This document shows positions 1 to 64,000 of a DNA stretch of 64,000 nt, in pieces (the stretch's first letter is position 1; the number at the start of each line of letters is the position of its first letter). The notes below the pieces were generated by a model that was not told the DNA's origin, searched no databases, and was given only the letters and a program-made list of their open reading frames with translations. Source of the DNA: Eukaryota sp. GEM-RC1 (lineage: Eukaryota); NCBI GenBank assembly GCA_040285855.1, contig JAUFOQ010000002.1, forward strand, positions 186,001 through 250,000, written 5' to 3'. The position numbers and the translations under genes are program-made.

Positions 1-105
1 TGACCTGGTTCTGCTCACTTTTGCTATAATCTTGACAGAACTGACTATAATCTTGACAACTTCTTTTCACTTTCCCTCAAATATCTCTCTTTATTATTCA
101 TAAAT

Positions 106-2309: not shown

Positions 2310-2399
2310 CACTTTTGCTATAATCTTGACAGAACTGACTATAATCTTGACAACTTCTTTTCACTTTCCCTCAAATATCTCTCTTTATTATTCATAAAT

Positions 2400-6321: not shown

Positions 6322-6988
6322 GAGTTTGACTATAATCTTGACAAAAATGACTAAAATCTTGACAAAAATGACTATGCTCTTGACAAAAATGACTAGAATC
6401 TTGACAGCTTCTCATTCTTGCTAGAATCTTGACAGAACTGACTAGATTCTTGACAAGTTGCTTTCTGATCCATTTTAGTGATATCATCATTTCTTCGTCA
6501 CTGCCTCACTGTCTCCCTCTTTATGTTCTGGACCTGGGAGTTTCTGCTTTCGTTATCACATATACTTTAGTAGTTCAAATTCTACATTCTACAGTTCACT
6601 ATTGCTCTAATGCTCACAATCACAATCTTTCTTGAATTTCTTACATCTTTGACAATGACTTCTGCTATCATGTCCTTCCTGGCGACACACTCTACATTTC
6701 CTTGCGGTTTTCTTCTTTTGAGTTCTCATCACCCTACCATTCTCCTCATGAACTTTTGGACCTTCGTATCGATGGGCAGACCTTGCTAAACCCACATTGG
6801 CAGCCTCTTCTAACCGTACCTTGTCTGCTGCTGACTCAGTAGACCGCCATTGATTGAACAGTTCTTCAACAGGATTAGAAATTTGACCTGGTTCTGCTCA
6901 CTTTTGCTATAATCTTGACAGAACTGACTATAATCTTGACAACTTCTTTTCACTTTCCCTCAAATATCTCTCTTTATTATTCATAAAT

Positions 6989-8542: not shown

Positions 8543-8544
8543 TT

Positions 8545-9790: not shown

Positions 9791-10456
9791 ATTTATGAAT
9801 AATAAAGAGAGATATTTGAGGGAAAGTGAAAAGAAGTTGTCAAGATTATAGTCAGTTCTGTCAAGATTATAGCAAAAGTGAGCAGAACCAGGTCAAATTT
9901 CTAATCCTGTTGAAGAACTGTTCAATCAATGGCGGTCTACTGAGTCAGCAGCAGACAAGGTACGGTTAGAAGAGGCTGCCAATGTGGGTTTAGCAAGGTC
10001 TGCCCATCGATACGAAGGTCCAAAAGTTCATGAGGAGAATGGTAGGGTGATGAGAACTCAAAAGAAGAAAACCGCAAGGAAATGTAGAGTGTGTCGCCAG
10101 GAAGGACATGATAGCAGAAGTCATTGTCAAAGATGTAAGAAATTCAAGAAAGATTGTGATTGTGAGCATTAGAGCAATAGTGAACTGTAGAATGTAGAAT
10201 TTGAACTACTAAAGTATATGTGATAACGAAAGCAGAAACTCCCAGGTCCAGAACATAAAGAGGGAGACAGTGAGGCAGTGACGAAGAAATGATGATATCA
10301 CTAAAATGGATCAGAAAGCAACTTGTCAAGAATCTAGTCAGTTCTGTCAAGATTCTAGCAAGAATGAGAAGCTGTCAAGATTCTAGTCATTTTGTCAAGA
10401 GCATAGTCATTTTTGTCAAGATTTTAGTCATTTTTGTCAAGATTATAGTCAAACTC

Positions 10457-12085: not shown

Positions 12086-12965
12086 ATTTATGAATAATAA
12101 AGAGAGATATTTGAGGGAAAGTGAAAAGAAGTTGTCAAGATTATAGTCAGTTCTGTCAAGATTATAGCAAAAGTGAGCAGAACCAGGTCAAATTTCTAAT
12201 CCTGTTGAAGAACTGTTCAATCAATGGCGGTCTACTGAGTCAGCAGCAGACAAGGTACGGTTAGAAGAGGCTGCCAATGTGGGTTTAGCAAGGTCTGCCC
12301 ATCGATACGAAGGTCCAAAAGTTCATGAGGAGAATGGTAGGGTGATGAGAACTCAAAAGAAGAAAACCGCAAGGAAATGTAGAGTGTGTCGCCAGGAAGG
12401 ACATGATAGCAGAAGTCATTGTCAAAGATGTAAGAAATTCAAGAAAGATTGTGATTGTGAGCATTAGAGCAATAGTGAACTGTAGAATGTAGAATTTGAA
12501 CTACTAAAGTATATGTGATAACGAAAGCAGAAACTCCCAGGTCCAGAACATAAAGAGGGAGACAGTGAGGCAGTGACGAAGAAATGATGATATCACTAAA
12601 ATGGATCAGAAAGCAACTTGTCAAGAATCTAGTCAGTTCTGTCAAGATTCTAGCAAGAATGAGAAGCTGTCAAGATTCTAGTCATTTTTGTCAAGAGCAT
12701 AGTCATTTTTGTCAAGATTTTAGTCATTTTTGTCAAGATTATAGTCAAACTCTGTACTGGTATGTCGTTGTACGATCACTTCTGACTTACGTAATGTTAA
12801 ATCACCATTCAATATCAAGACAAATATTTATTTGGATCCTTTCTCAGCAGAAAACAATTCCAAAAAAACAACACTTCCAAGCAAACGTGAATGAAGATTT
12901 GGCAAAAAAACACATCATGTTTCAACAATTTAGATAGTGTGTATTAGCATTTCATCTTGGATGAA

Positions 12966-13938: not shown

Positions 13939-14522
13939 CAGGAAAGTAGTCCAAAATTCAAAATTAAAGTAAAGTAAAGTACTTTACTTTACTTTAAGCT
14001 TTACTTTACTTTGATAAATAAAGTTACTTTAAGGACATTAAAGTTGAATCCAATCTCAATTCCTCTCCCATACATTCTCTCCTGAAAATTGAAAATTGAT
14101 TTCCATGACATTCCTTCCTTCCGAACAGCTCCTTCAAGACAGTTCTTCGACTGGCAACCAGCAGAGGAAGTGGTCTTTGTATTTGAGGATGATGACCAAG
14201 AAGTGTCTGATGAAGATCTAGAAGAGAATGAAGAAGATGTGGTCCAAGTTGAAGGAGTGAACCCATATGAAGATGTGGTCCAAGTTGATCCATAGTGAAA
14301 ATGATATATTCTCAAGCTCAACCGCTTTCCATTTTTACATTCCAGTTTTTGGTGAGTTTCTACAATAAAACATATAATAGTGTACTTTTGGTGTCAAAGA
14401 GTTATTTACTGTGCTCAGAAAGCAAAATAAACCAGATTGAGGTTTGTCACTTTACCGTTCCGAAATTTTAAAGTAAAGTAAAGTAAAGTCACTTTATCAC
14501 TTTACTACTTTAGTGAAGCCTG
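13939..14522 (+). mobile_element. Non-autonomous hAT deletion derivative
   Basis: CAGG...AAAGTAGT / ACTACTTT...CCTG ends; AAAGT subterminal repeats; TSD GTCCAGAc/a; acidic transposase tail (FFDW...) resembling the 44811 element; empty site at ~54090. Confidence 0.75.
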
Positions 14523-17262: not shown

Positions 17263-18586
17263 ATGTCTTCGGTTGTTGTTTTAAAGATTGGTTCCTTTGA
17301 ATGTGGTATTTCAGGACGCCACGCTAATCTTGAGGAGTGGTTCTCAATGAGAAGCATAGTTCTCCCTGCTGAGCATCCAAATGGTCGACCTCTTTTCGGT
17401 GAAGCTGCTTTAGGAAAGGAAAACAATATTCGACCAATTACAGAACGTAGCCTAAACAAGGAGTACTTTATTTCTTTACTACAGGAAATTTTACGTCGAT
17501 CAAAGGTCAAAGATTTAACCAATCAATGTGTTATTACAAACGACGTCGAAATTCCATCTCAGAAAAGCCAAGAAGAACTGGCCGAATGTCTGTTCTCAAA
17601 CTTTGAAGTAAAAAGTCTCCTGATTGTGCCACAACAGTTTGCGTCTGGATTTGCCTTCTTCAAAACAAACCACGCCCAATTCCCCCCTTATCAACATCTG
17701 TACAGGACACTTTGTGACAACTATTTCATGCGTCAACTTCGATCAACAAAACAAACAGTTTTCTTTTGAATCTCCACTCTTGTTATCACCAGGATTCTGG
17801 CATGCAAGTAAAGCAATGCAAAAACTCTACAGTCAACTGGACAACCATCCACCCCACCATACTATCCTAAGAAGAGAATCCATTGGAGAGGGGAAGCCAA
17901 ATCCCTCCGCTGTAGAAAGAGGTCCTGTTGTACCAGAAGTTCCCATTTATGACTGTTTTGAAGAGGCTTTTCTTTTGAGAGCCAAAGTGATGAGCAGACG
18001 GCCCCATGAGTCATCAAACTTTGAAGAGGCTGGAACTGTTTCGTTACTTTCCCATAAAGGCAGACAAGTTGATCTGGGAAAAACCCCCTCATTGGCTTGC
18101 GAGGTCTTTTTCAAACAAGAGTTCCAAACTTTACGGCCAATTCCTGACAACGTCATTGAACTTCTACAAAACTCTCCAAATGAATGTTCAAATAACATCA
18201 TTGTAACTGGCGGTATTGCTCGAACTGATGGCTTTGTTGAAAGACTGTTGACAGAATTGTCTGAGAGGAGACCTGGAGTGAAAGTGATTCATGCGTTGAA
18301 ACACGATGCTGATGCATGCGGAAAGGAAATCAGAAAAGCGTTGGTAATGATGGCTAAAGAATATGGAGGTTTAGAAGCAGCCAACAATGGACATTCTCAT
18401 TGGGTTCTTCGTAGTGAATTTGAACAGAACAAAAGTATTTTGCATGAAAAGGGATTCGCAATACCAAACTGTGATTTTCAGAATGTGCTTTTGGAACCAA
18501 CAGTTGAAGGAATGCACCCTAGTGCTAAGGTAGGAGAGAGCGGAATGTTACAGGAGCAGACAAGAGGAGCAGGAATATCTTCATAG
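17263..18586 (+). CDS. Divergent actin-related protein (frameshift ~17690)
   Basis: VVLKIGS..CGISG, ELAECLFSNFEV, ACEVFFK, NIIVTGG...GFVERLLTEL, WVLRSEF actin-fold motifs. Confidence 0.75.
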
Positions 18587-18781: not shown

Positions 18782-20118
<1,337 letters not shown>

Positions 20119-24567: not shown

Positions 24568-25590
24568 ATGCAACATTTTCCTCTCCCTATGTCAAAATCA
24601 GAGTTTTATAACGGTTTGCATTTTCGTGTGGTTTTAGAAGACGTTCGAGTCTCGGATATTCCTATTCTTGATCCTAGTTCTGGTTTGCCTGATCCTTATG
24701 TCGTCTTCAATTTCGATCACACTCAAGTGAAGACTGATGTCATCAAGCAAACCTGTAACCCCGTTTACAGCAATTTCCGCGAAGAAACCAATGTAGAGTG
24801 TCCCTCTCACGAGCTGCTCCCCTCCCGCCAATTGTCCATCGAAGTATGGGACAAGAAAACATTTGCAAAGGACAAAATGGTCTGTTATGGAGTAATTGAT
24901 TACAAGAGTCTCGCTCTTGGCCCCCGCTCCAATATTCTTAATCTTGTTTTGGCCGACAACCAGAGTATGATGGCTGGAACTATCTCGTTTTCTATCCGCT
25001 TTGAAGAAATTGAAACTGCTCGATTCAACTTCAAGAAGGTCAATCTCAAGGTAGGAGAAATCACCGGTAGTGAGCGCCGCTACAATCTTTGGGTTAAGAT
25101 AATTCTCCAGCACAAACACGCCGATCGACATGCTCCCACCATTGGATCTCGCCTCAAAGGATGCTTCACCATGGGCTCTAGTGTTAAAACTGTTACTCAA
25201 AGAAACACCGCTGTTGGAAAATGGGACGAGATTCTTCGACCCCTGCGCTTCCGTGAATGTACTCTTGCTCATTACATTGACCATGAATTGATCATTAAGG
25301 TTATGCACCGCACTTTCACAGGAGTCTCACGCCACATTGGTACTGCTAAAGTAGATTTGGCCAAGAACTTTCCAAGATCAACATCTAATACTATTTCGTT
25401 TTCAACTCAAATTAATAGTACTTCATCTGGAAACAAGCTCGGATCCCTTTCGTGCACCGCAGAAACCTTTGACTTCCCTGTGTATGGTCAGTTAACTGAC
25501 GGTGTTCGTAACATTAACGGTACCTTTGGAACTCTTCTTCACTCATCTATTGAGAAACCTTATAATTTCAAGGGTAAGATGAAGAAGTAA
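24568..25590 (+). CDS. Tandem C2-domain protein
   Basis: D.SSGLPDPYV, KT.VIKQTCNPVY, IEVWDK...D; second degenerate C2. Confidence 0.85.
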   Translation: MQHFPLPMSKSEFYNGLHFRVVLEDVRVSDIPILDPSSGLPDPYVVFNFDHTQVKTDVIKQTCNPVYSNFREETNVECPSHELLPSRQLSIEVWDKKTFAKDKMVCYGVIDYKSLALGPRSNILNLVLADNQSMMAGTISFSIRFEEIETARFNFKKVNLKVGEITGSERRYNLWVKIILQHKHADRHAPTIGSRLKGCFTMGSSVKTVTQRNTAVGKWDEILRPLRFRECTLAHYIDHELIIKVMHRTFTGVSRHIGTAKVDLAKNFPRSTSNTISFSTQINSTSSGNKLGSLSCTAETFDFPVYGQLTDGVRNINGTFGTLLHSSIEKPYNFKGKMKK

Positions 25591-25779
25591 GTCGGATGAA
25601 TGTAAGTTTTTGATTTTTTGTAGATAAATCGGTTTGAATATTGAATACATGTAATATCATGTTGTTCTTGAAAGCAGTTCTTTCTTTGACTGGTCTCATT
25701 CTACACAAGGTGTTCAATTAAATCCCGTGTTCATGGTTGATTAGTGCACTGCACTAAAGTAATTCTCTTCACCCATAAG

Positions 25780-27384
25780 ATGCTTATCGCCCTTACCGTT
25801 TCCTACTTACCTCTGTTTCTGTCGTCAGTTTTCGCCACTGCCAGATTTACCACATTCTTTTCCTATCAGCTACAGCTCTTTCTTTTATCTTTCGCACTTC
25901 TGTTCAAGCATTTGAAATTTCATTCCTTATGCTTGACTCTTTCTGTTTGCGCAGGTGTGTGTATTACCTTCTGGAACTTCATCCGGCTACCACTACCCCT
26001 CTTTCTTCTAGTCGTCGTTCTTCTCTGTTTCCTTTTCTACATCGGACCCTATCTTCTTGCTTCTAGCCTTCATCCCAGACTTCACTTTGGTATTTCCTTC
26101 CCTATTTTCTTCTCTCTATCAACCCTTATCGTCCGTGTCTTCTCCCCTTGGGCAACCCAAGGAATTCCTCCTTTAGCCTCTGCTGGATCCCTATACGTTC
26201 CCTTCGCATCCCTATTTGGAATCGACGGTCTCTCTTACATCTCATCCTTTGTCCCTTGCTTTATCGCAATGTGGTTGATCCACTACCTCTCCACCTCCAG
26301 ACCCTCTTTCATTCAAAAGATCACTGATTCTCACTGGGCTGAGTCTTCCTTTCCCTCTTCTCTTCTCCTCATCCTTGCTTTCTTAGTTACTTCTCTCTTC
26401 GTTCTCTCTGCTCGCAACTCTATCTTCTTTGCTAACAGTTCTCCCGTTGTAATGACTGCGGGAGTTGTTCTCCCAAGGTTTGCTACTCCTGAAGACCTTT
26501 CTCTGCTCTTGGAATTTGAACGCCAGTCCATTCAATGGGCATTTAATGTTTCTGAATCAACTGTTGGTAATGCTGAAATTCTTGTTTGGTCAGAGTCGAT
26601 GATTAATGTTTCTATTTATAGTAACGGTGTTAACACGGAGGAAGAGCTCTTCAACGCTGCTTCAAAGTTTTCTCTTCAACATGGGATCTATTTGGTTGTT
26701 ACTTACCACTTGACTTCCAGAAATGAAGATTTATCAATTTTAAATGTTACTAATAATTTGGCTGTTTTCGATCCAAAAGGACATCACCGAGGTACCTATG
26801 TTAAGCTCAACACTGTGTTTGTAGTTGAGAATCACATCACCCCGTCAACTCCTGAAACTAAACCTTTAATACTAGAGACTGAACACGGGGTTTTTGGTTT
26901 CCTTATATGCCATGATTTGGACTTTCCCTCTTTTGTTCATCATCTATCAAATGTTGACGTGATTTTTGCCCCTGCTTGGGATCAACGACTCTGGGCTAGG
27001 AATACTTTTGGTTCAACTCTGCGTGCAGCTGAACTAGGATTGTCTGTAGTTAGAGTTACTTTCGGAGGTTGGAGCGCCGTAGTTCAACACGATGGTCAAC
27101 ACGTCTATGGTTCTTCTCATTTCTCATTTCCCTTGGAGAACAGCTGTCCAGAGTTTGTTGAAGCTATGTCCCCTGGTGGTTGTACTACTGCTGGAGTTGT
27201 GACCTTTACTACACCTGTTCCAGTCAAGAAAGTGACTACGTTGTACGGTATTATTGGTCCTCTCCCTGTGTATTTGTTCTTTGTGACTCTTGCTGTTTTG
27301 GTGGTGGGGTTGTGGTATACCACGAAACCTAGTTTTAGTCAAGATGAGAATGTTCCACTGTCAGGGGATGCGGTTTACCACTAG
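25780..27384 (+). CDS. Membrane nitrilase-fold protein, apolipoprotein N-acyltransferase (Lnt)-like
   Basis: Multiple N-terminal TM helices, ASLFGIDGLSY, E-K-C triad (VWSES, YVK, LICHDLDFP), RAAELG, TLY...G, C-terminal TM helix. Confidence 0.82.
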   Translation: MLIALTVSYLPLFLSSVFATARFTTFFSYQLQLFLLSFALLFKHLKFHSLCLTLSVCAGVCITFWNFIRLPLPLFLLVVVLLCFLFYIGPYLLASSLHPRLHFGISFPIFFSLSTLIVRVFSPWATQGIPPLASAGSLYVPFASLFGIDGLSYISSFVPCFIAMWLIHYLSTSRPSFIQKITDSHWAESSFPSSLLLILAFLVTSLFVLSARNSIFFANSSPVVMTAGVVLPRFATPEDLSLLLEFERQSIQWAFNVSESTVGNAEILVWSESMINVSIYSNGVNTEEELFNAASKFSLQHGIYLVVTYHLTSRNEDLSILNVTNNLAVFDPKGHHRGTYVKLNTVFVVENHITPSTPETKPLILETEHGVFGFLICHDLDFPSFVHHLSNVDVIFAPAWDQRLWARNTFGSTLRAAELGLSVVRVTFGGWSAVVQHDGQHVYGSSHFSFPLENSCPEFVEAMSPGGCTTAGVVTFTTPVPVKKVTTLYGIIGPLPVYLFFVTLAVLVVGLWYTTKPSFSQDENVPLSGDAVYH

Positions 27385-27654: not shown

Positions 27655-28136
27655 CAGTGTTCGAAAATTTTCCACCCGGACGTCACCCGGGTGGTGGATG
27701 GAACCGGGTGGCGTCCGGGTGGTTTTCATTTCCACCCGGGTGGTCACCGGGTGGTAATAAAGTACGAGACATAAGTTTTGGTGCAAAAACTACTTTATAC
27801 ACCATATACAATGAAACTGCAAGTACTTTAGCAGTGTGTGATATAAAATAACTAACAATGAAGTACTTTGTTTAGTTTTGGGATTAGAAAAACCCTCTGA
27901 AAAATAAATAAATAAGATGATATTAGCCTCTCCGAGCCTAGAAATACCTCCCGTTAAAATAATTGTATTCAGGACACGTTGAACAACGAAGTATGTATTC
28001 AGGAAGTCATGGATTGAAGATGATGGTAAGACCAAAATTATCCACCCAGTACCACCCAGACACCACCCGGGTAGTGGGTGGCACCGGGTAGCTCCCGGGT
28101 GGTTTTCATTTCCACCCGGGTGGTTTTCAAACACTG
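27655..28136. mobile_element. hAT MITE with CACCCGG subterminal repeats
   Basis: TIR CAGTGTTyGAAAA; perfect TSD CTTAATTG; same terminus as at 39403. Confidence 0.92.
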
Positions 28137-28174
28137 CTTAATTGTAACTGAACAACATTTCCCTTCATTCTGGT

Positions 28175-39402: not shown

Positions 39403-40863
39403 CAGTGTTCGAAAATTTTCCACCCGGACGCCACCCGGGTGGTTTTCTATTCCACCCGGGTGGTCACCGGGTGGTCTAAAAATGAGAGACACTTTTTCAT
39501 GTTCTCCTCGATACACTTGTACTCATACATGCATCCGTATAACTCTCATCACTCACCCTAAAACTCCTTTCATAAAAGCAAAATACTTTATTCTAATCTA
39601 AACATTGGAACCATTCATCTAACATCTCCTCAGTCATTATGATCACGAACTTGTAGGTTCTGATGGAAACAAGGGTCAAAGAGTTCCATATCGTCATCAT
39701 CTTCGTCATCATTGACTTCAGCTTGTACTTGTCTCACAGGAACGTCTTCTACTTCTTCTTCTTCCTCTACCTCCATCTCTTCATACATTTCCACAATCTC
39801 TTCCGCCATCCATTGTGGGAAGTCCTCACGTGCAACTAAAAGCTTCTTTCGGAGTTTAAGATTGCAATAGACAAAAACGAGAGACTTCAGCAATTTTGTA
39901 CTCATTCTATTTCTTCTTTTGTTCATGATAAATCCAAATGCTGGCCAGTTTCTTTCAGCAGAAGATGCAGATGAAATTTGTCCCAACAACTGCGATGCTA
40001 CTGTTTTAAGTGGACTATCAGTTCCATGTAGCTTCCACCACTCATAGGCTGGTTGCTTCTGGGCTTCTTCCCAGATAAATGGATCATCGTAGTAAGGAGC
40101 CTTTTGGATCATATAATTTTGAAAGTCGGTATTGGCCTTTTCATAATCTTCTTTGCTGAGAACAGAACTAAGATATTCCCTCATAATCCTTAGGTAGTTC
40201 ACTAATCTTTCGCCTGAGTACCCCGCTAGTTTGGATTGGTTTTCAGGGTCCAACAAATGAGCAGTAATATGTGCTCGGGTTAGAACAGCATCCACTCGTT
40301 TCATTTCTATCGTCAATTGAAATCCAAGTCATGGTTCTGAGCAAGTCCAAAGTATTGTTGTACGCAGCGGCAGTTCTGTTCAGCAGTTTCCCAATATATG
40401 GAGTATCTTGATCAGAAAAAAGGATCAAATCGGCAAATGGTTTGAACAAATGAGAAATTTGACCTATTTTGTCCCAAAACGAGTACTGGCCAATACAAGG
40501 CAGAGACTCTATGTCTTTAACATGATGTAAAATTTCATGCATCTGCATCTTTTTTTCATGTGGCAACTTTCCAATCATTGCCAGAACATCGCTATGAAGA
40601 AGAGTAGTAATTACTGCATTCTTACACTCAATTATCCGTTGAAGCAATAAAAACCGAGTATAAAATCTGGTTTCTCCTGGAAAAAGTAATTTTTTTCTGA
40701 AATCTGATTAAAAACATCACGTGAGGTCTTGTGATTTCGAATGAATTTGGCAATTTTTTTTTTGCAATGTCAACGAGATTTTTGATGGTGGGAATACGTC
40801 CTTCTACATTGGTTAAAGCAAGATCGAAAGTATGAGCAGCACAAGGAAGCCAGAAAACTTTTC
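39403..40863 (-). mobile_element. 5'-truncated hAT transposon (3' TIR plus C-terminal half of the transposase)
   Basis: TIR CAGTGTTCGAAAATTTTCCACCCGG at 39403; VFWLPCAAHTFDL, PGETRFY, AHLLDP, SSASSAERNW in shifting frames. Confidence 0.88.
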
Positions 40864-40956
40864 ACACATCTTCCTTAATTACTCTACAAAATCCGAAGGC
40901 AATACAGTATACATTTCTGCATACTCCCTCCGGGGAAAGCTATACTACGTTACTAA
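40864..40956 (-). ncRNA. Candidate Fanzor omegaRNA scaffold
   Basis: Directly 3' of the Fanzor stop: CCGGAGG-g-AGUAUGCA-GAAA-UGUAUACU-guauug-CCUUCGG nested hairpin with G.U pairs. Boundaries inferred. Confidence 0.6.
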
Positions 40957-43900
40957 CTACGAGAGATATTCAGGTCTTCCTCTCCCTTCTCTATACCCAT
41001 CTACTATTCTCAACATATTCAAACACGCAAGCTGATTACGATTCCAATACTTTCTCTCACTTGATCCTCTACAATTCTCGCTTCGACATTCAAGTAGATC
41101 ATGACAAAGCACTTTTGGAGTTTTTTCTCTTCTGTAGGGTCTTGGATTCTCGATCTTGTGGAACTTCTTCACCTCACTTTCACAATCTGGGCAGCAACTG
41201 GATGTTTTCTTTTCATTCAATAAAACGACTTCAAATCCATTTCTTCTCAAGAAAGACCGCCATCCGATTCCTCTTGTCGGTCTGTGATGTTTCAAATTCA
41301 CTTGACCATTTGCCCCAAAATCACCCATACAGATCAGTAGTTCTTCTCTTCTTCGTCCAAAAGTCGATTCGAGTGACTTCAACAACCAGGACTCTACTTT
41401 CTGCTTATGGATGTAGGAACGCATTTTTTGGATGCGCCATAAGGCAGAACAGTAAAACCAAGCGGTTGAAGTCACTTGTTTCATTTTGGCCTGGACCCAA
41501 GCTTCGAGATCAGCAAACGTGGCAGATTTTGGACTTAATCCTGAAAGCAAGCTATCAGTTTCTTCAATTGTGAGCGGTGGAGTACTTTGAGAATCTTGAT
41601 TTGATCTGTTTCTTGATGGTCTAACTTTGAACTTTCTTCTGGCACCTTTTAGCAGGTGTTGTTGCTTTCTTGCTACCACAGTCCATTTGCATTGTGTCAG
41701 TCGCAGCCAATTACACTTGTTTTCTTGAATTTGTTCTTCATTTCTTCCACCAAAATAAAGTAGATCCCTTTTCCAGGGTCACAGACAACTACTTTTTTTG
41801 TTGTAAATTTTTCTGCTCGCATGTCTTTACAATAAACTTCTTTAATCTTTCCTTGTAAATCATCCTTACCTCTTTTTTCACCAGCAAAGTCGCGCCTAAC
41901 TAGCTCAATTGAACAGTTTTGGCCGTCACTGTGGATAATGTTGTTGAACACATAATCTTTCTTTTTGAACTCTTTTAAATCGAAGTTTACAAACATTTTC
42001 CAAAAATCATGTTGGTCTTTTGGTTTGAACTTGGTCACCTCTGCTTGGTTGTTCATTAACTTCAGATCCTCGGTTTTTTTGTTTTGCCTGACGATACTCC
42101 ACAAAGTTCTAGTATCAATAGGAAAGTAGCCTGGAATTACCGTGGTTACAGCGGGAAACCAGTGAAAAGCCGCTTCTTCTTTCTCCTTCACATAACGATT
42201 CATAGTTATGGCTGCCGGCATGAATAATTGAGGCTTTTTTCCAGTTCCGAAATTTTAGTAAATGGTCGAAGCACTCTTAATTCAAAAGGAGGTGATCTCT
42301 GCAAAATTTCAAATTTTTCAACGACATACGGGTAAATAAAGGCATCGTATAAAAGTCTTGTTCGTGAGGTCTCACTCCTTTTTCCCCCTGCTTTGTCCTT
42401 CCAATCTTCTTCAAACTTTTCTAGGCAAAATTGATTTGAAAGGAACAAGTTGAAGTTATCGACAGATTCAGCAGTAAAAATGTCTTTAATCTGTCGAAGA
42501 GCAAAACGATACAAAGTTAAAGTTTGTTGACAATCAGGTCGTTCTTCTCTTGGCAGCTCTTTAATTAAATTTGAAATTTCTTCTTCAGACTGCTTTTTTC
42601 CAAAATATACGTTAATGAAACGATTAATCTGTTTTTCAAAGTGGAGTTTCAAGTTGTTGTTAATGTTACACAAGAGCACTGGAGCAATGTATTCTGGTGG
42701 TCTAGAGAAGCCTTGAGGAGGAAACATTGGAAAGTTATGGCCTTCATTTGCTTCTAACTGAATACGATAGCCCTTGTGAATTGAGTTGCTGTCGAATTGT
42801 GCTTCTCCCATGACAAATCGTTCTAAGTCCGCATCAATTGCACTACTGGGCCGTTTATAGGGCTGACCATAAAATTGGGCACAAAGATAATTTATTCGAG
42901 TCATTACAGACGTAATCATTTGTTCAGTAATTTCAGGTAACGCTTCTCCACGTTCAAATCTTGCTGTTAAAAACAATTGCAGGCATTGTAGAGTATGGCG
43001 ACGAAGTTCGTGAAATTGAGGTGCTAGCTGCACAATGTTTTCAAAGACATCACGATGCTTCAAAATTCGTGGAAGAGTAGACTTTACCATCCTATAAGTT
43101 GGAAGAAGAAATTTTTCTTTCTGGAATAGCATACAAAGTTTTAAAGTTAAGTTGGCGTGTTGATAATTGTAATCAACTAAGAGAGAGACCAGTGTACTTT
43201 CACACCAACAATCAATGGGCAATAAATTTCCAAGTTCCTCCTTCTTAAGTTTGAGACAAAATTCGTGTATCAGATTTCGTGTAAGAGATGGTAAATCATT
43301 TCCAAATTTCATTGTGAGAAAACGTTTTGCGAACAATAAAGTATCAAGTATCAAGTATCCGTGTTTATTTTTAACAACTTCACGCCAGTTTTTAGATAAA
43401 AGATTAAGGTTGGATTCTTGGAAATTAACAGGCCATTGGAACTGATAAAACTGGAAACGCTTTTCCAAAACTTTGAAGTCAAATCCAATAATATTGTGAC
43501 CAGTAATGAAATTTGGCTGGTAATCTTGAATCACGTCTATCAATATATGGAGCAGGACCAACTCATTGGGCACAACATAGATTTCAGTTCTTGGGGATAA
43601 ACTGCATTCAATTGGAGAAGGTAGGTTTGTTGCACAAAGGTTGACACAGATAATAATTGATTTTTCTTCGTAAAAATTTTCTTCATTAAAACGGCCAAAT
43701 ATTAATGCAACTGACATAACTTTTTGGCTAGCAATCCATCGATCATGTTCTTCTGAATTCATCTTTTTTAACTTCAGCGATTCCTTTCCTCGAAGCTTAC
43801 TTAATTCCTCCGTAATAGCTGTTGGAATTTCATCATCATGATGCATTGTCTCCAGGTCAATAGACATAATTTTTGGAAGAGCATAAGTATTAGGGTGTTC

Positions 43901-44774
43901 TTGAGCACATCCGAATTCAATCAAATTCTGTTTTTCGTTGTTGTCATGTGGCTTAATTTTCCTCAAAGCTTTGAGACAAGATTTCTTAGCAGGAAAAACT
44001 CTATTAGACAGGCGTTGTCCATTAATTTTCAAGGGAGCTCTCCGTGATTTGGCCTTAACTTGAGCCTTTTTGGCAACTCTTGCTAAAATTTCGAGATCGG
44101 ACATTGGAGGACTAGAACTACTATCAACTCGACTTTTTTTTAACAGGGGGGAACAATGGAAGTCGAATCATCAAGTCGAATAAAAGGAAGACTCAATCTT
44201 GTACCGATGGGATCAGAATTGGGATTAGATTGTGGACCTGGATTGGATTCCACATCACCATCAGACGTAAGATCAATTTTGAACTGCAGTCTACAATCAA
44301 AACTGACAGAAATTTGCAAAAACGACACTTCAATAAAATTTCACCACCACCACCAAAACCACCACCACCACCGATCCACTGAATTTTACAAGGAGGCAAG
44401 TTTGGGGGCTGGAAAGCAGTGTGTTGCCCTGGTGGTTCTATCACCATGCTGGGCATGTAAAAATGATAGGCCTGACTGCCAAAAACAACACACATACTCC
44501 CATAAAAAACCCTCGACTTCGAAAAAATAAAAAATTTGGATTGAATTGGATCAATGACCAAAAATGCCTTCCTTGGGGTTTTGCTTGAACAATGATGCCT
44601 TTGAATAGCATATTGCCGCCCGGTCCCACCCAGGCTGTATGGATACAAGATATCTACAGAAGTTGCTTCTGTAGAATTCCACCTGATTTGATAGGATGAC
44701 TTTCCCACCAAAAACAGGCCTCTCATAGCCGTCGAATCAATGAACATCGACATGTGAGCAAAAAAATGGACCAT
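40957..44774 (-). CDS. Leader-2A-PolB exonuclease-Fanzor1 polyprotein (four 1-nt breaks)
   Basis: 2A GDVESNPGP; Exo motifs SIDLET, GHNIIGFDF, YNYQHA; Fanzor motifs NNNLKLHF..INRFIN, FP.....PGYFPIDT, IHSDG..CSI, VCDPGK.DLLY, GDFG, NEKKTSSCCPDC, C....C, WNRN.LACLNM, RPEYL. Confidence 0.8.
43130..43875 (-). other. Family-B polymerase-type DEDDy 3'-5' exonuclease domain, in frame with the Fanzor N-terminus
   Basis: IMSIDLET (ExoI), NELVLL...P.FITGHNIIGFDF..L..R (ExoII), LDTL, YNYQHANLTL (ExoIII, D>H); no stop or frameshift before TYRMVKSTL. Confidence 0.8.
44233..44274 (-). other. 2A (StopGo) ribosomal skipping peptide
   Basis: DLTSDGDVESNPGP matches the consensus D(V/I)ExNPG|P. Confidence 0.88.
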
Positions 44775-44810
44775 TTTGTGGGTTGTTGGTATTTATAGAT
44801 GTGTCTACAG

Positions 44811-47391
44811 CAGGGATTCCTAAAGTAGTCAACTTTTTCAGAATTAAAGTAAAGTAGTGTACACTACTTTACTTTATACTTTACTTTACTTTACACTTTA
44901 ACATACTTTAAGAATGTATAAAGTGATCCTGCATCTTACAATTTTGTTCTTCAATTATCTCTTCAGTTTTATGACATCTCTTCCTTCCGAGGAATGGAAA
45001 ACTCTCTGTGAAGTAGTGGAAGTAGTCTCTAGCACATGTGCCCGGTTCCGTTGTAAGCTGTGTGACGTCGTTCATTCTGTCAACAGGTGGACAATGGAAG
45101 GACATTTCTTACGTGACCTACCTAAAAAGCGTCCCATCTCGCTCTGTTCCAACATTGGACCTCCTGGTTCACAAAATGCGCTCAATGTTGCTGCTCTTAG
45201 AAGATACGTAGAGACTCATTCCCGGGGGCGTAAGCGGAAGGCTTCTCAACAGTCTACACCTGAGACGAAACGAAATGACCTACAGCCCTTTCTTTCTCCC
45301 GTTCCTGAACCTCCTGTCGATGAATCATCTACTGTGGTTGTCATCTCTGAGTCTGATCCAAATACATCATCTCTTTCTCCGACTTCTGCTGTCACGGCTA
45401 TTCCCCAGCCAACAATTGAAACTACTATTCCCATTGCAACTTCCCCCCAAGATCTGTAACTTAAAGCAGACAAAACTAAAGAAATTTTATCAAAAAAGTA
45501 GCAACCAAAATCTAGATGAAGTTGTTGCTCTTTATGCTCTAGGAGAAGGATTACCACTCACTAAAGTTTCTAAATCGACAAGGCTGCAAAATGTTATTGA
45601 AGGAGCTGTCGAGCATTATAAGCTGTACAACGAAGTTTTTGAATTACCATCTTATCAGAAATTGATGGACACAGTGGCTCCCAAAATTATTAAAAATGTT
45701 AAAAGACAAAGTACAGTCGACATTGCTACCCTTTGCACTGGTTGGACTTTAGTTATAGATGGATCAGAGATAAATTATAACAGTTTAATTAATTTCTGCC
45801 TTGTTGGTCCAAACAGGACAATTTTTTACAAATGCATTGAATGCAATTATCAGTCAAAGACTGCAGATTTCCTTAAAAATCTTTTTGTTTCAGTTCTCAA
45901 CGAAATTGGTCCTGAATATGTAAATTTTGTCATTACCGATGGAGCAGCAAATTATTTAAATGCAGCAACAGCTGTCCAAGATGTTTTCCCAGCCATCACA
46001 AGGATGCGGTGTAGCATTCACACACTCAATTTGTTTTTAAAGGACATTTGCTCGCCGACTTCAAATTACGTTGTGCCTTCAATTCGAAGTATTGTCGAAA
46101 AAGCCAACAAAGTAGTTGATTTTGTTGTTAACAAGCCTTTCATCCGGAAGCTTTTGAAAAAGTCAACCCAGAAGAAATTAAAACGAATTTGTTTGACACG
46201 ATTTTACACTCAATTCATCGTCATTGAAAGAGTACACGAATTGTACCAAAATGTCAATAACACTCTCACGAATGAAGACTATATCACCTGGCTTGCTAAG
46301 CCACAACAAGCTAGAATTAGAGAAGTATCTGCTGAGGTCAAGCTAATAGTTGCCGATGATGATTTTTGGGTTCAGGTAAAATTATTAATTGACTTCTTAC
46401 GACCAATCATTGACTTAATGCTGAAAATGGACAGTCTAACGCCAATTATGGGAAAATTGTACCGATACCTCGAATTGGAAGATCTGAGGTTATCGACAGC
46501 TCAGTTATCCATCCTAGAACCAGGTGAAATTGATAGCATAAGAAGTCGATTTCAGGTTCGAAAGAACCAATTAGCACATCCTTGTGTTAAAGCTGCATTC
46601 TGTTTGGATCCTGAAAACAGAAACATTGTCAGACTGAGTCGATACCTTGACTGTAGGAACGCACTTTTTGGTCTCATTGAACAACGGTTCGGTGAACGTA
46701 AGAAACCAGATGTTTTGCAACAGTGGAATGAGTACTTAGTTGGAACTGGGGAGTTTGAACATGAAGCAATTTTTCTTAATGCAAGGAAACAATCTGCTCA
46801 TAACTGGTGGTATGCCAATGGAGGGGACCAAGAATTATCTCAATTGGCAGTAAAACTGCTAAGTAGTGTTGCCTCCAATTCAGAAGCTGAAAGAAACTGG
46901 TCTGACTTCAGTGTTGTCTGTACCAAAGAGCGATCCAGACTAACAAGTGAGAAAGCCAGTGACTTTGTGATGATCAAACACAACCTGAAGAGGGGAAAGA
47001 TAATGAGTAGAAAGTTCTTTGACTGGATTGATGAAGAAGTTCTTGGTCCTGAGCTTGACAATTTAGAGGTCACAGATGATGAAGAAGTACAGCCTGTGGT
47101 GGAGGAGATATTGGTTCCTGAGTAATCTGTAGAAGAAGTGAAAACTTGAGTGCTCACCCACTCTTGATATGTATAGTTTAGATTTTGTAGTTTTTGGTGA
47201 GTTTCTACTTTATAAAAGTTGTTTAAATTCCTACTGTCGAAAGGAATAGATGTATACGGGATGGCTGGAGCAACCCTAGCAATCAAGAAAGAAAGTGCTT
47301 AAAGTGCTTAAAGTACTGAAAATATCTTAAAGTAAAGTAAAGTAAAGTAAAGTAAAGTGCTTAAAGTACTTTACTACTTTAAGAATCCCTG
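44811..47391 (+). mobile_element. hAT DNA transposon
   Basis: 19-bp TIR CAGGGATTCyTAAAGTAGT; perfect TSD GTCTACAG; AAAGT subterminal repeats. Confidence 0.95.
44971..47125 (+). CDS. hAT transposase (frameshift ~45445)
   Basis: CKLC...H...C finger; VIDGS, ITDGAANY, CSIHTLNL, TRF, AFCLDP, SNSEAERNWS. Confidence 0.92.
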
Positions 47392-50901: not shown

Positions 50902-51140
50902 TGAAAGGTGGTTCAATTTGGAATTTGAAAAAGTGGAAAACCCAACTCAATGCTTGATGATCCTTGAGCTTTTCTACAACATTCATTCATCAAAAACTGT
51001 ATCACAATGGCCTATTCTCGCTTCTAAAACCAGCCAAAGAATAAAAAGAAAAAGTTCATTTCATCACGTGATTTTTTGACCGAAGGCTATAAAAAGGATT
51101 TCTCCATTTTAGGAAACTACATTTTCTCCTTCCTATTTCG

Positions 51141-53350
51141 ATGATCGATACTGCTAAGTTTATTGCCGAAAACATTCGTCCCTATGATGGTGATGCCTCC
51201 TTTCTTGCTGGTCCAACCCAAAGAACCAAGGAATTGATGATCAGAACTGCTGAAATCCTCCGCGAAGAACTCCAGAAAGGAATCTATGACCTTGACATTG
51301 TCCGTCCAAGTACAATCACCTCCCATGGTCCTGGTTATCTTGACAAGACCAAGGAAACTATTGTAGGATTCCAAGGGGAAGCTCCTCTACAAAGAACGTA
51401 TGACTCTAGTTGACTAACAATAGTATGAAGTGTGCTGGAGGTGTCCGAGTTACTGCAACAGCTTGCAAGTCTTATGGCTACACAATGAACACAGAAACTG
51501 AAAGAGTCTTTACTGAATACGCTAAAACCCACAACGATGGTGTCTTTGACATGTACACTGCTGAAATGCGTGCTGCTCGTAAGTCTGGTATTATCACAGG
51601 TCTTCCTGATGGATACATGCGTGGTCGCATCATTGGAGACTACAGAAGACTTGCTCTCTATGGACTTGACCGCATGATCGCTGAGAAGAAACACGACAAG
51701 GACAATCTCCCCAAGACAATGACCGAAGACAACATGAAACTTCATGAGGAAGTTAGCGAACAGATCAAAGCTCTCAAACAAGTCAGAGTAATGGCCCAAT
51801 CCTACGGTTATGATGTTTCTCAACCTGCTAAGAATTGCCAAGAAGCCATTCAATGGACCTACTTTGGATATCTTGCCGCTATTAAGCAAGCAGACGGTGC
51901 AGCCATGTCTTTTGGACGTCCAGATGCTTTCTTTGATTACTTCATTGAAAGAGATCTTGATGCAGGCACATTTACTGAAGAGCAAGTTCAAGAATTCATT
52001 GATCATTTTGTAATCAAACTTCGTCTTGTTCGTCATCTCAGAACTCCAGAATACAATGATCTGTTTGCTGGTGATCCCACCTGGGTCACGTGTGTGCTCG
52101 GAGGCATAGATCAAAGTGGTCAACACATGGTCACTCGAACCTCGTACCGTATTCTCCAGACTCTCTACAACTTAGGTCCTGCTCCTGAACCAAATCTCAC
52201 TATTCTCTGGTCCCCTAAACTGCCAAAGACTTTCCGTGATTTCTGCTCTCAAGTTTCCATCGACACGTCATCAATCCAATACGAGAACGACGACATGATG
52301 CGTCCTATCTATGGTTCCGATTATGGTATTGCTTGTTGTGTTTCAGGTATGGCTCTCGGAAAACAAATGCAATTCTTTGGTGCTCGATGTAATCTTGCTA
52401 AACTTCTTCTCTACACCTTTAACAATGGAGTGGACGAGGTCACTGAACAACAAGTAGGTCCTCAATTGGGATCCCCTGTTGACGGTGATGTTTTGGACTA
52501 TGACAAGGTCTGGAATTCTCTATCAAAGTACATGGATTGGCTCAGTGAGTTGTACGTTAATACTATGAACATCATCCATTACTCTCATGACAAGTATGCT
52601 TATGAATCATCAATGATGGCTTTCCATGATACTTTTGTTGAAAGACTCATGGCCTTTGGAATTGCTGGACTCTCAGTTGTTGGTGACTCTCTGTCTGCTA
52701 TCAAGTATGCTAAGGTTTATCCAATTAAAAATGAAAAGGGTCTAGTAGTTGACTTTAAAACTGAAGGCGAGTTCCCCTGTTATGGAAATGATGACGACAG
52801 AGTTGATTCAATCGTAGTGTCTCTGTGTCACGAGTTCATTTCCCGTCTTAGAAAGTACCCAACCTATCGAAATTCAACTCACACTCTCTCTATTCTTACC
52901 ATTACTTCTAACGTTGTCTATGGTAAGAAGACTGGTAACACTCCTGATGGTAGAAGAAAGGGCGAACCTTTTGCACCTGGTGCTAATCCTTCTCATAACC
53001 GTGATTCTACAGGAGCTATTGCTTCTTTAAACTCTGTTACCAAGATATCCTATGATGATTGTCGTGATGGAATTTCAAATACGTTTTCTATTCTTCCAAA
53101 TGCTCTTGGTAAGTCCAAAAGTGAGCAAATCTCCAACCTATCTGCCATGCTTGATGGGTATATTCTACAAAAGGGTTTCCACATTAACGTCAATGCCGTT
53201 CGAAGAGAAGTTTTGATTGACGCCATGGAACATCCTGAGAATTATCCCCAGTTAACAATAAGAGTTTCTGGCTATGCTGTCAACTTTAATAGGTTAACTA
53301 GAGCACAACAAGAAGAAGTTTTGGCTAGAACTTTCCATTCTCATATGTAA
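51141..53350 (+). CDS. pflB: Pyruvate formate-lyase, 2 exons (51141-51397, 51424-53350)
   Basis: [23 protein letters not shown] catalytic Cys pair, RVSGYAV glycyl-radical motif. Confidence 0.96.
51398..51423 (+). other. 26-nt spliceosomal intron
   Basis: GTATGA...ACTAAC-AATAG; removal joins the two PFL ORFs in frame ([14 protein letters not shown]). Confidence 0.88.
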
Positions 53351-55980: not shown

Positions 55981-58018
55981 CAGGGATCGAAAAAAATAAA
56001 TTGTATTGCAATATATTAAAATAAATTATATTGTAATAAATATTGCACGTCTTTTGTTGCGCAATATATTTATTGCAACAAAGGGTTTATTGCAATATGT
56101 CACAACGAGATTTATGCAGAGTAACTCTAACAAGTCTTGTTCATAGGAACACTGCACTGCATATCCACTCCAAGACCAAAAAAAGTTAAACGGGGACCTA
56201 CAGTTGGATTCTACATCACTATTGTCATCACTCAACATCATATACTGTCAGGCACCAATTAGTGACCCACCTCCTAATAGTGCCCCCCTCCTAATAGTGA
56301 CCCACTTTAGGGGTGGGGCTATAATTTAGTGCCCCAGTGTTGATCAAGATCACACAAATGGGTGATAAAAACAGTCTTATGTCAATAAAAAGAATATACG
56401 ATTAGATTCAGATTTAATAGTGGTATTTGGAACTGTGATGAAACTGCCATATTTTGTGAACCAAATGAATCAAGAACAATTGATTTTATTGACCAAAAGA
56501 TTGTTGTTGTTAAGTCTGCAGGTCTCGCAAAGGTACGTTTGACCGGAATCGTTATGGCTAACGCTCTAGGAGTGAAAAAACTCCTGCCATTATAGCACAA
56601 AGATCAGGAAACAGAACCAATAGAGAAGAAGGCTGCTTTATCTTGAAAAGAGAATCATCTTTGATGAATGGAGATTTATTCATCAAATATCTGCAGTTAA
56701 TGTTTCCATTGACCAGTAAGGCTGCTGCCAACAGAATGCTATTGGTATTTGATTCAGCTCCTGCCCATCGAAGTAAGAAGGTCAAGGCTTATCTCAAGGA
56801 AAGGGGGTTCAACTATGTTTTGATTCTCGGTGGTTTAACTGGATTATTACAGCCATCAGACGTCAGTTGGTTCAAACCTATGAAAGCAACTATCAGGAAT
56901 TGTATTGAAGAATGGTTGGAGACTGCACCTGTAACGACCTCCAATCGAGTTAGAGCACCTTTGGCTAACGATATGGCAAAATGGATGAAAGAGTCGTTGG
57001 ACAAGTTAAAGAGTGAAGTAATATCAAAATCTTTTCAAGTGTCTTTTCTAGGGCCTTCGCAGACCTTATTGATTTCTCGCCATCCATCAATCCGTCCTCA
57101 CTTAGATATCAATAGTTTCGATGCATTATTACCATATTCATCAAGTGATGAGGGAGGAAGTAATCGATTTGGATTCATCGTCTGATGATGACATCGATGA
57201 CCTTCTTCAACTCAACAATTCATTGAATTTGGGGATGGATAATGATGTTGTTGCAGTCTTTGACTAGAGTTATATTGAAATATAAAGTTGTTTTATGGGT
57301 CATTTATGAACAAAGACAAAAGGATCCTAATAGTGACCCCCTCCTAATAGTGACCCAGTTTGGGGGTGGGGCTATAATTTAGTGACCCGGGGTACTATTT
57401 GGCGCCTGACAGTATCAAGCAATGAGATTTGTGGAAACTGTTACATGTGTTTATATAAATATCAATAACGACACGTTCCAATCATACTAGTAGTGGCACC
57501 CAGCAATACAATCTATTTTTTTCGATCCCTGCCTAGAGTCTGGACCAGGAAGCGTGAAGTCTTATCGTATAGTAGGTGGGGCTGTAATGAACATGGTATA
57601 CGTACGTAACGAATCGCTGAAAAGTTCAAACACGTGTATACATCACATCATAGGAACCATTGGAAGTAAATAAGTAAAGAGCAAAGTAGAACGATGAGTT
57701 GTGAAGTCTGAGCGTACATTATGATCAGAAGAGGTGTCAAGATTTACAATACGTCATGAATATACTGATACATGTATCTGAAAGGGTAACCAACTAAAAC
57801 AAGCGTTGATTTTCTGTCAGTAAATTTCAGCAAAACATCTCAATTTTCTACATTTTCACAGACCAAATTTTACCCAAAATATTGCAATATATTGCAATTA
57901 TTTATTGCAATCATCACCTTTTCCAATATATTTATTACAATGACCACATTTTCCAATATATTTATTGTACATTTTTTTTTGCTAGAAATATATTGCAATA
58001 TATTTTTTTCGATCCCTG
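55981..58018. mobile_element. Non-autonomous hAT element with nested insertion
   Basis: TIR CAGGGATCGAAAAAAATA; perfect TSD GCTAGTAC; extra internal right-end copy ending 57531. Confidence 0.88.
56245..57412 (+). mobile_element. Pogo/Tc1-mariner element, internally deleted DDE transposase
   Basis: TA TSD; TIR CTGTCAGGCrCCAAwTAGT; WNCDET, LVFDSAPAH, LQPSDV motifs. Confidence 0.88.
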
Positions 58019-61382: not shown

Positions 61383-64000
61383 CTACCTCTTCTCTCTTTT
61401 CGAGTTCCTTGTTCTCTTGGCTACAGGTGACTTAGCTTTCTGAGATTGCTCGCTGGATACTCTTTTCTTCTTAGGCCTGTGGACAGTGGAGTCATTACTA
61501 CTATTACTATTTAATTTAATAAACTCTGAGTATGCTTTCGTATTCGTGATGTCTTTTAGGGGAACTGCTGAGTGTTCGCCACCAAACCAGACTACTGTGC
61601 AATACTCGCCTTCAGGGGTATCATATCGATCAAGGACTTTGACCAAGATATGCTCTTCAGTATCACCCGAAGCAACAGCCTTGTGAAGTTCATCATCATT
61701 GGGTAAATCTGTCTGATAGATCTTGCATTGATGGATGCTTGCTTTACCAACGTGACCAGTGATCAAATTCTTGATAGACATGGAAGTATTGGAATCAATT
61801 GACATTACTAAGAATGGTCCACAATAACTACCATGTAGCTTGGATGACTTAGTTGCCTTGAGCACAAGGTCCCCTGCCTTAAAGGGATTAGGTTGAGATT
61901 TCTTAGAAGGAGCCTTACTCGATTGTCGAGCCCCTGCCTTTTCTCTCTTTTCTTTAAGGCGTTTCAGTTTCAGAGCCATGTCGTCGATGAACGAAATTTC
62001 CGAAGTGGAACATTCGATCGCTTTTAACATAGTACCGGGGTCTGCACCTGGGCTTATGTCGCTACCAAACATCAACTCGTAGGGGGAATGTCCCGTTACA
62101 CTACTCTTAGTTGAATTGATTTGGAGCTGAACCGAAGGAATGTATGTTGACCAATTGTCGTAATCATTGAAATCTACAAGAAGACGGCGTAAACTTTGCA
62201 GCACGTCTCTATGTCGTCGTTCCACCAGACCATTACTCTGGGAGAAATGAGGAATCGATCGACTGACTTCAATGGCCAGTAGGTTGCAAACTGCCTCGAT
62301 TGTAGCGTTAGCAAACTCCTTGCCGTTATCACTATGGATACAGAACGGTATACCAAAAATAGCTATTACATCCCAAACCAGGCGATATGCTACTTCAGTG
62401 CTATTCAGATCCTTAAGGGGGCTTAAAATGGTGTATCTGCTGAACGAGTCAACAAATACCAGTAGAAACTGGTTTCCATTTTGATCTTTTGGCAGAGGTC
62501 CTATTGTGTCGACGTTAAGTCTTGCAAAAGGTCGATTAGCCCAGAGAGAACCCGTCGGCTCAATTGCCAGTTTACGGACAGGTGCCGTTTTCTGACAGGA
62601 TGGACATCGATTCACGTGGTTGATCATGTCAACCTTCATGCTAGGCCAAAAGTAGCCACTATTGAACAGCTTTTCCAAACTATTTTTCAAGTTAGGGTGA
62701 CCAGACTGGACGAGTCCGTGGAGCATGTAGAGGACTTTCTTACGTAAGCTCGACGGTATCAGTATCTTATTCTTGCTGTTAACGTAAGTCTTGCTCTTAG
62801 GAAAAGGTTAGCTTTTGTGAATAAAGTGTCTTTTGCTTTTTTTTGCCGTTAGCTGCTCAGCTCTGATGGTTGATAGCCATGAGTTGAACAGGGGCAACTT
62901 GCCATCTGTTGAAAGTTCACGGAGGTTGCTAATTACATAAACTGAGTTGTCATGTGGTTGAGACTCGATGTAGTTAGCTTCATCATATCTCAAATCATTA
63001 CGATTGAGTGTGATGTGATCCTCGGTGTGACGTTCAATCAGATTTACTGATTTGATTGTTTCCACTGGATTGCGGTCAATAACGCGAGAGAGCATGTCAG
63101 CCCAGTGGTTGTCTTCTCCTGCAACGTGTTCAATCTCAAAACTAAACTCGGATAAGATGGGGATCCAACGTTTTACGATCCTATTCTTTTCTGGAGCGGA
63201 TATGAGAAAGGAAAGGTTCCTGTGATCACTGAAGATCACCAAGTGTCTACTTATGAGGAAGCTTTCTAGGTTTGATTCAGTCAGAATCAGCAAGATTGCG
63301 TACAGCTTTTTCTGGATAGCTGACCAATTTTGCTGACTGTCGTTAAGGAGTCGGCTATAGAAGGATACCGGTTTTACCTTGCGATCCTTCAGTGGAGTGC
63401 CGGGTGGAGCTGGGGGTTTTCTTCCTGCCAGATGACTCCTCCTACGGCGATGTCCGAAGCGTCTGTCGATATGATAATGTTCTTATCTTCGTCAGGTAAG
63501 TCTAGAGCCATGTTATTGATTATCAACCGTTTTATTTCGTTTAATAAGTTTTCATGTTCGTCTGTCCAGTAAATCTTCTTTGGTTTGTCTCTGGTTAGTT
63601 TAATAATCGGTGACATCAGGTCCGAGAAATTCGGGATCCAATCACGGATGTAATTCAACGCACCAATGAGACTTCGAACCTCAGGAAGTGTCTTGGGGGA
63701 CGGTAGACTCTTTAAAGCCGAGACCCTACTCTCGTCAATGTGACGGGTTTTGTTCACAAAGTCGCTGCCTAGAATCTTTATTTTATGACTTGAAGTCGTG
63801 AAATGACACTTCTTTAAGCCAAACCGTACTCGGTAGCGTCTGGCGCGTTCAAGTACGTTTGCGATTCTTGAAAGAAACTCTTCGAAGGTGTTGCCAATGA
63901 CAATTATATCGTCGATATAGATGAACACACCTTCACAACTGAAGATTTCCATCATGATGTTTTGGAAGATTGCAGGTACATTCTTCAAACCAAAACATGC
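61383..64000 (-). mobile_element. Ty3/Gypsy LTR retrotransposon pol (RT-RNase H-integrase), runs off the window
   Basis: YIDD; TDAS, SDHRNL, NHWADMLSR; H..H..CPSC, VDT, SDNG, NGLVER; chromodomain-like tail. Confidence 0.95.

Follow-up and report, generated by a model that had tools for sequence, protein, structure and literature searches.

We analysed a stretch of 64,000 nucleotides (nt) from Eukaryota sp. GEM-RC1 (GCA_040285855.1, contig JAUFOQ010000002.1, positions 186,001 to 250,000), hereafter the window, and found on its minus strand a gene that joins a PolB-type 3'-5' exonuclease domain, almost without a linker, to a Fanzor1, a likely RNA-guided nuclease. The fusion is real, old and conserved in a clade of at least eight subfamilies. 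Judged by sequence, exonuclease-Fanzor is a new, conserved variant of Fanzor1. We propose, with a probability of about 45%, that the intact fusion cleaves DNA with an RNA guide and then trims the 3' end at the break it has made, and that the element is then copied back into the emptied site.

Copies and relatives of the fusion

Other copies and relatives were examined as annotated proteins. The window protein lies in a 90% cluster of seven, whose six named members all come from Eukaryota sp. GEM-RC1 and from contigs of five sizes. Exonuclease and Fanzor share one open reading frame (ORF) in five of the seven members; the other two are incomplete and begin within the Fanzor part. Searching 1.84 billion representative proteins gave 35 matches, which by our own sorting comprise 16 members of the fusion family, 7 stand-alone Fanzors, 10 DNA polymerases and 2 exonuclease fragments. 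Of these 35, seven family matches run across the junction as a single stretch, with identities of 28-34%. The further copies that a first-pass annotation of this DNA had suggested looking for therefore exist, both in the cluster and among the 16 family matches. Seven junction-spanning relatives, some of them distant, together with the multiple copies rule out a one-off dead chimera as well as a misassembly of the junction.

All 16 family matches derive from three named organisms, GEM-RC1, TZLM1-RC and TZLM3-RCL, and so do the six proteins retained by a further alignment search among 7,999 scored candidates. Strain names of the GEM-RC1/TZLM form are described for free-living metamonads, a link by name only (10.1101/2023.05.03.539051). 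Intact, unbroken full-length fusions were represented by P0015, P0051 and P0052, which belong to one TZLM3-RCL cluster and in which the C-terminal piece of the Fanzor is contiguous with the rest. No related loci were detected among viral contigs, metagenome contigs or phage records by searches that need close matches and so do not bound the range of the family; ESM Atlas matches for the paralog P0008 were low-score leads only.

The exonuclease and Fanzor halves are equally conserved, with a mean identity of 29% each (Mantel r 0.36, p 0.013) over nine subfamilies, a comparison that leaves out a tenth, fragmentary subfamily and in which two rows pair fragments of copies 83-88% identical. The nine Fanzor halves fell on one side of a branch, with the seven stand-alone Fanzors on the other (100/100), a grouping that would be a clade only with a root placed outside it. 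As a separate observation, a DEAH helicase stands at the start of P0051, before the exonuclease-Fanzor, and may reflect a merged gene model.

Gene layout and exonuclease domain

The gene comprises a 632-aa ORF at 44104..42206 on the minus strand, followed by two pieces in other frames at 42254..41697 and 41778..40957. Read through with X at both breaks, the protein is 1,049 aa long from the Met at 44104. Its basic, disordered N-terminal leader (aa 1-77, 43874..44104, minus strand; pLDDT, or predicted local distance difference test score, below 50 for aa 1-60 in a paralog model) is followed by the exonuclease domain (aa ~78-328, 43121..43873, minus strand). The ORF with ExoI, ExoII and ExoIII-like motifs reported in the first-pass annotation is present at its full 632 aa, although it is not free of errors, about 12 of its residues being garbled as described below.

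A Pfam scan of 33 window ORFs placed PF03104 (DNA_pol_B_exo1) on aa 126-266 with an E value of 5.2e-16, and Pfam, PDB profile, fold comparison and alignment all assign the domain to the PolB-type, DEDDy-class exonucleases. The catalytic positions are D83 and E85 (ExoI), D209 (ExoII), and Y312 and H316 (ExoIII). The ExoIII pattern YxxxD reads YxxxH in the window subfamily (5/5 copies), and the His316 codon is one base away from an Asp codon. Across the eight subfamilies covered, the Asp and Glu of ExoI and the Asp of ExoII are kept in all, and the ExoIII Asp in seven, the exception being the subfamily of the window. The sequence suggests that the exonuclease of this subfamily may be weakened by the substitution. 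ExoI is followed by a basic helical insert that is specific to the family.

Among exonucleases, the family profile searched against PDB scored Pol delta best (E 2e-12), with phage and herpes enzymes next; by fold, several PolB exonuclease domains tie. The polymerase family PF00136 had no match, and no palm, fingers or thumb were seen in the fold model of the relative P0052, in keeping with the initial remark that no palm domain was visible. A truncated DNA polymerase is ruled out by the lack of any polymerase family match and by a Fanzor fold that starts 4 residues after the exonuclease.

Fanzor1 half and predicted folds

In a PDB search, the last of the three pieces (41778..40957) had matches to PpFz1 (E 1.4e-29) and SpuFz1 (E 2.8e-23). 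The family profile aligns to SpuFz1 from its start, and the WED-I and REC region occupies 42236..43099 on the minus strand. The middle piece (41769..42240, minus strand) follows break 1 and carries WED-II and the DPG of RuvC-I, with its Asp at 41780; at the position of the TDG motif in WED the window subfamily has SDG and its relatives TDG. The C-terminal piece (40957..41772, minus strand) follows break 2 and holds the RuvC-II Glu (41214), a C4 zinc finger, the RuvC-III Asn (41037) and the stop at 40957.

Fanzor1 proteins are distinguished by DPG in RuvC-I and by an alternative RuvC-II Glu right before the zinc finger (PMC13565253, PMC10711439), and both are present here. In the read-through protein the residues are D776 of DPG, E965, the C4 zinc finger and RN at 1023, so that the motif D-X(125,275)-[TS][TS]-XX-C4 zinc finger-X(5,50)-RD is matched by D776, a gap of 191, TSS968 and RN 1023, apart from the exchange of the last Asp for Asn. 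Identification of this half as Fanzor1, proposed at first reading, is thus supported, with RuvC-I, RuvC-II and the zinc finger as proposed, and a RuvC-III residue that is Asn, not Asp. This Asn occurs in all six family sequences that reach it (the window, P0009, P0010, P0015, P0051 and P0052). It is ruled out as the sign of a dead nuclease: GtFz1, which has the same D/E/N triad, bears Asn naturally and cuts, and D606N raises the activity of SpuFz1 (PMC11423790).

An AlphaFold2 model of P0052, built from 26 sequences, reached a pLDDT of 74 and a predicted template modelling score (pTM) of 0.59. Its best structural match was SpuFz1 (E 1e-26), followed by PpFz1, GtFz1 and then Pol delta. Residues 132-379 of P0052 superposed on PolB exonuclease domains with Z 19-20 and a root-mean-square deviation (rmsd) of 2.3-2.8 over about 190 aligned residues, and residues 383-1096 on SpuFz1 18-631 with Z 23-25 and an rmsd of 5.3-5.5 over about 570. 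The link between the two in this model is about 4 residues. P0008, which is 94% identical to the window protein, folds alike (pLDDT 77, pTM 0.55; Foldseek E 2.6e-11 against SpuFz1). The P0052 model shows the expected order, a DNA_pol_B_exo domain of DnaQ/PolB fold, as PF03104 indicates, and then SpuFz1-like WED, REC, RuvC and zinc finger domains.

Frame breaks

The two frame breaks sit where the first-pass annotation had placed them, in the T run 42235-42240 and in the T/C runs 41766-41772 (plus-strand letters), the second lying in RuvC-I. Every break is a one-base slip in a homopolymer run. Break 1 is read through by all five paralogs that reach it, which are 98% identical. Inside the WED-I and REC region, a compensated +1/-1 pair at ~42386 and 42353 garbles about 12 residues relative to five paralogs, a form private to the window copy. 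Beyond break 2 the frame stays open for 270 codons with all motifs intact, and a systematic error is therefore favoured there. The beta-tubulin gene of the window (18782-20118, plus strand) served as a control for assembly error, and its frame is likewise broken near 19022, where one base has slipped in a T run; in the copies of a Mutator-like element (MULE) repeat, all three distinct indel sites lie in runs. Introns are ruled out as the cause, no intron-like sequence being present at the breaks though the host has short introns. Most likely, as the sequence suggests, the breaks are assembly errors.

2A-like leader

A motif that had escaped the first reading lies upstream of the ORF. A canonical 2A/StopGo core ending in GDVESNPGP, a predicted ribosome-skip site that agrees with D(V/I)ExNPGP, was found at 44274..44233 on the minus strand, about 44 codons before the Met. 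NPGP occurs nowhere else in the six-frame translation of the window, and the canonical motif arose in none of 200 shuffles; the corresponding DNA pattern matched once in the window and in none of 100 dinucleotide shuffles. The motif is one frame off the main ORF, with homopolymer runs between. The stretch from the 2A proline to the first Met (44105..44232, minus strand, ~43 codons) contains one frame change at the runs 44134-44151 and is presumably continuous; a basic stretch within it may, by its composition, be a nuclear signal.

NPGP was present in 6 of 67 proteins fetched, all of them family members from four subfamilies (P0017, P0019, P0023, P0032, P0053 and P0054), and in these six the motif is in frame. 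It precedes ExoI by 45-290 aa, two of the motifs being canonical and four having His for Glu; in P0017 and P0032 it lies at aa 73-77. In the annotated proteins of two subfamilies, the intact one (P0015, P0051 and P0052) included, no 2A motif was found. 2A sequences occur in RNA viruses and, in non-LTR (long terminal repeat) retrotransposons, close to where ORF2 starts; their activity depends on upstream residues, and substitutions of the Glu often lower it (PMC3708506); they are described as rare in cellular genes (PMC12846837, PMC12338488).

Two further observations concern this region. P0019 has, between the 2A motif and the exonuclease, a region with a weak Pfam hint (E 0.59) of an Ulp1-like protease, which its motifs are presumed to indicate as well. 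In the window, just upstream of the 2A motif, a 199-aa open frame (44193-44792, minus strand) with a glycine-rich stretch had no Pfam or ESM Atlas match and may be a leader peptide.

Candidate guide RNA and genomic setting

Some 55-80 bases of non-coding DNA separate the stop at 40957 from the 3' half of a broken hAT transposase with its terminal repeat, which lies directly downstream (39403..40870, minus strand). The gap (40880..40956, minus strand) contains a GAAA-tetraloop hairpin and is a candidate omegaRNA scaffold; in SpuFz1, an 80-nt omegaRNA region lies directly after the gene (PMC10432273). The folding z score of the gap, about -1.2 to -1.8, is the lowest of the neighbourhood and not significant, being reached by 1 of 42 ORF windows. 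An Rfam search of the gap gave no match.

The Fanzor is multi-copy and abuts a hAT fragment, and hAT elements are reported as the commonest Fanzor neighbours (PMC10530073). The window Fanzor may have jumped into this hAT or may ride in it. The other end of the truncated hAT is not in the window, and the stretch 44340-44810 is ruled out as its missing 5' half by the lack of tblastn support. Terminal inverted repeats for a Fanzor element were also looked for, from this one copy, and none were found.

About 540 bases upstream of the 2A motif lies a separate hAT insertion (44811..47391, plus strand), which is near-intact, has terminal inverted repeats and shows a target duplication of 8 bp; related AT-rich ends occur at ~13957-14521. 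Terminal repeats and palindromic subterminal repeats of the truncated hAT (39403-39480) recur in a 480-bp non-autonomous element (27655-28137). The window as a whole is eukaryotic and rich in transposons, with MULE, hAT, Tc1/pogo-like and Gypsy-like elements among tubulin, histone, kinesin and pyruvate formate-lyase genes. The pyruvate formate-lyase gene (~51130-53350, plus strand), with its likely 26-nt GT-AG intron at 51398, marks an anaerobic eukaryote with very short introns. Positions 1-12780 are a tandem array of a 2,294-bp MULE, about 3.7 direct and then about 2 inverted copies, with two alternating sequence variants 8 substitutions apart and 21-bp subterminal repeats. Other features are a divergent actin-like gene in two frames (17263-18586, plus strand), C2-domain and carbon-nitrogen hydrolase ORFs (24568-27384, plus strand), a DDE_1 transposase fragment (56643-57185, plus strand) and a broken Gypsy-like retrotransposon with reverse transcriptase, RNase H and integrase (61383-63988, minus strand).

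Proposed function

In the course that we propose, StopGo would release a protein of ~1,090 aa beginning at the 2A proline. This protein would take up an omegaRNA derived from the gap behind the stop codon and cleave the donor site left empty. In SpuFz1, cleavage of the non-target strand falls 16-17 nt from the target-adjacent motif (TAM) (PMC10432273); a displaced, non-homologous tail would accordingly remain on the TAM-side 3' end, unmatched next to the end of the element in the donor allele. The fused proofreading-type domain would chew this tail back to the junction, and host synthesis would copy the element (restorative homing). OMEGA nucleases have been proposed to cut the emptied site and so to trigger copy-back (PMC13565253). 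In yeast, the proofreading activity of Pol delta trims invading 3' ends as well as non-homologous tails (PMC9477423), and the exonuclease of T4 polymerase (gp43) affects homing of the td intron (PMC2988022). By analogy, a tethered PolB exonuclease would fit the gap of tail removal before synthesis. The cut-and-trim idea, put forward in the first-pass annotation, appears to fit the family, in which the DEDDy residues are intact in 7 of 8 subfamilies; it is weakest for the window subfamily because of the ExoIII His in 5/5 copies and of the break in RuvC-I in all three copies that reach it. More tentatively, the clade might carry its own break-processing enzyme, a 2A-released exonuclease-Fanzor that would cut, trim and home as a self-contained machine and would amount to a naturally tuned exonuclease-nuclease editor, with domains added behind the 2A in some members, such as the Ulp1-like protease of P0019.

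Several results weigh against restorative homing. His316 stands in all five window-subfamily copies, so this subfamily has spread without a canonical exonuclease site. Break 2 is common to the window copy, P0001 and P0008, which are all the copies that reach it, and none of the seven cluster members reads past RuvC-I. The exonuclease is attached at the start of WED, and domain packing is unsure because pTM is 0.55-0.59. FastTree trees of the two halves agree only partly. The candidate omegaRNA folds no better than chance, and the single window copy yielded neither Fanzor element ends nor a target duplication or a partner transposase. Finally, engineered fusions of TREX1, TREX2 and T5 exonuclease all impaired MmeFz2 (PMC12923547).

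Four alternatives were weighed. In the window subfamily the exonuclease could be weak or dead and have a structural or DNA-binding role, its activity being kept in the relatives. The fixed His for Asp, one base from an Asp codon, would agree with this, as would the basic helical insert after ExoI and the finding that DNA-binding add-ons improve an engineered Fanzor (PMC12923547). D83, E85, D209 and Y312 are kept, however, and the fold is confident. His can also ligate metal. We regard this alternative as unlikely.

The same anatomy would allow the fused domain to trim break ends to spoil re-ligation, a mutagenic or destructive action comparable with TREX2-Cas9 and directed at empty sites or rival elements; the young transposons that crowd the window are possible targets. 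An empty site destroyed without copying would bring little gain to the element, and neither an array nor a guide directed against other elements was seen, which makes this action improbable. Maturation of the 3' end of the omegaRNA guide, also suggested at first reading, is a further alternative; some DEDD enzymes act on RNA. Fanzor guides extend 14-15 nt beyond the end of the element (PMC10432273). The best matches of the domain, by sequence and by fold alike, are nevertheless all DNA-polymerase proofreading domains, which makes guide maturation less likely than trimming of DNA, and stand-alone Fanzors have trimmed guides without an exonuclease domain (PMC10432273); we consider this role very doubtful. 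Decay of the window subfamily, with a real break 2 and copies that make exonuclease-WED-REC only (or need ribosomal frameshifting) and are spread passively by a transposase in trans, would explain the shared break, the want of full-length cluster members and the many fragments in two of the three organisms, but is highly improbable given the 270 open codons with intact motifs past the break, one-base slips in runs as in host tubulin and repeat copies, and breaks without intron-like sequence.

Comparison with known systems

No natural exonuclease-Fanzor fusion was found in searches of the open-access literature or in the main texts of the Fanzor and TnpB papers examined, and the first-pass annotation likewise knew of none. 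The word exonuclease is absent from the main texts of the Fanzor papers examined (e.g. PMC10711439, PMC3627910) and of the TnpB survey PMC10691335. In the Fanzors and TnpBs known so far, the nuclease makes the cut and the processing of the ends falls to the host. The fusion points to an unsolved step, the removal of the tail between the cut site and the insertion point, and an exonuclease that is conserved and, by its residues, catalytically intact on a Fanzor1 makes the proposed homing role directly testable, with one domain that can be disabled.

With the Fanzor1 proteins SpuFz1, PpFz1 and GtFz1 (PDB 8gkh, 9cf0 and 9cer) the fusion shares the WED/REC/RuvC/zinc-finger fold (Z 20-25), the DPG of RuvC-I, the shifted RuvC-II Glu before the zinc finger and, as in GtFz1, the D/E/N triad. 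The omegaRNA of SpuFz1 lies in the gap after the stop, and the fusion gene has a similarly short gap after its own. Unlike known Fanzor1 proteins of ~640-730 aa, the fusion has ~1,050-1,100 aa; an exonuclease domain of ~250 aa replaces the short N-terminal leader, and a 2A-like motif lies upstream. PolB proofreading domains (Pol delta, alpha, epsilon and RB69/T4 gp43; PF03104) have the same fold and the ExoI-III motifs, whereas the fusion lacks the polymerase domains, carries the basic helical insert after ExoI and has, in the window subfamily, His for the ExoIII Asp.

The 2A sequences of RNA viruses and of APE-type non-LTR retrotransposons (L1Tc, Ingi, CR1, L2) resemble the leader in having a GD(V/I)ExNPGP core close to where a mobile-element ORF begins, and the position in P0017 and P0032 fits the range of 40-80 aa given for retrotransposon 2A (PMC3708506). 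In contrast to these, the predicted 2A precedes an exonuclease-Fanzor, no reverse transcriptase occurs in the proteins seen, and His replaces Glu in four of the six family motifs. A 2A/StopGo leader on a Fanzor gene, if true, would extend ribosome skipping beyond RNA viruses and retrotransposons.

Accessory nucleases of P and piggyBac transposons likewise place a DEDD nuclease on a eukaryotic DNA transposon (PMC3627910). They are of DEDDh type and separate from an RNA-guided nuclease, whereas the present domain is of DEDDy/PolB type and fused to it. TREX1, TREX2 and T5 exonuclease fusions to Cas9 or MmeFz2 also tether an exonuclease to an RNA-guided cutter. Those fusions are artificial and failed on the Fanzor, impairing MmeFz2 (PMC12923547), whereas exonuclease-Fanzor is natural and conserved, a clade that offers a natural solution with three intact genes.

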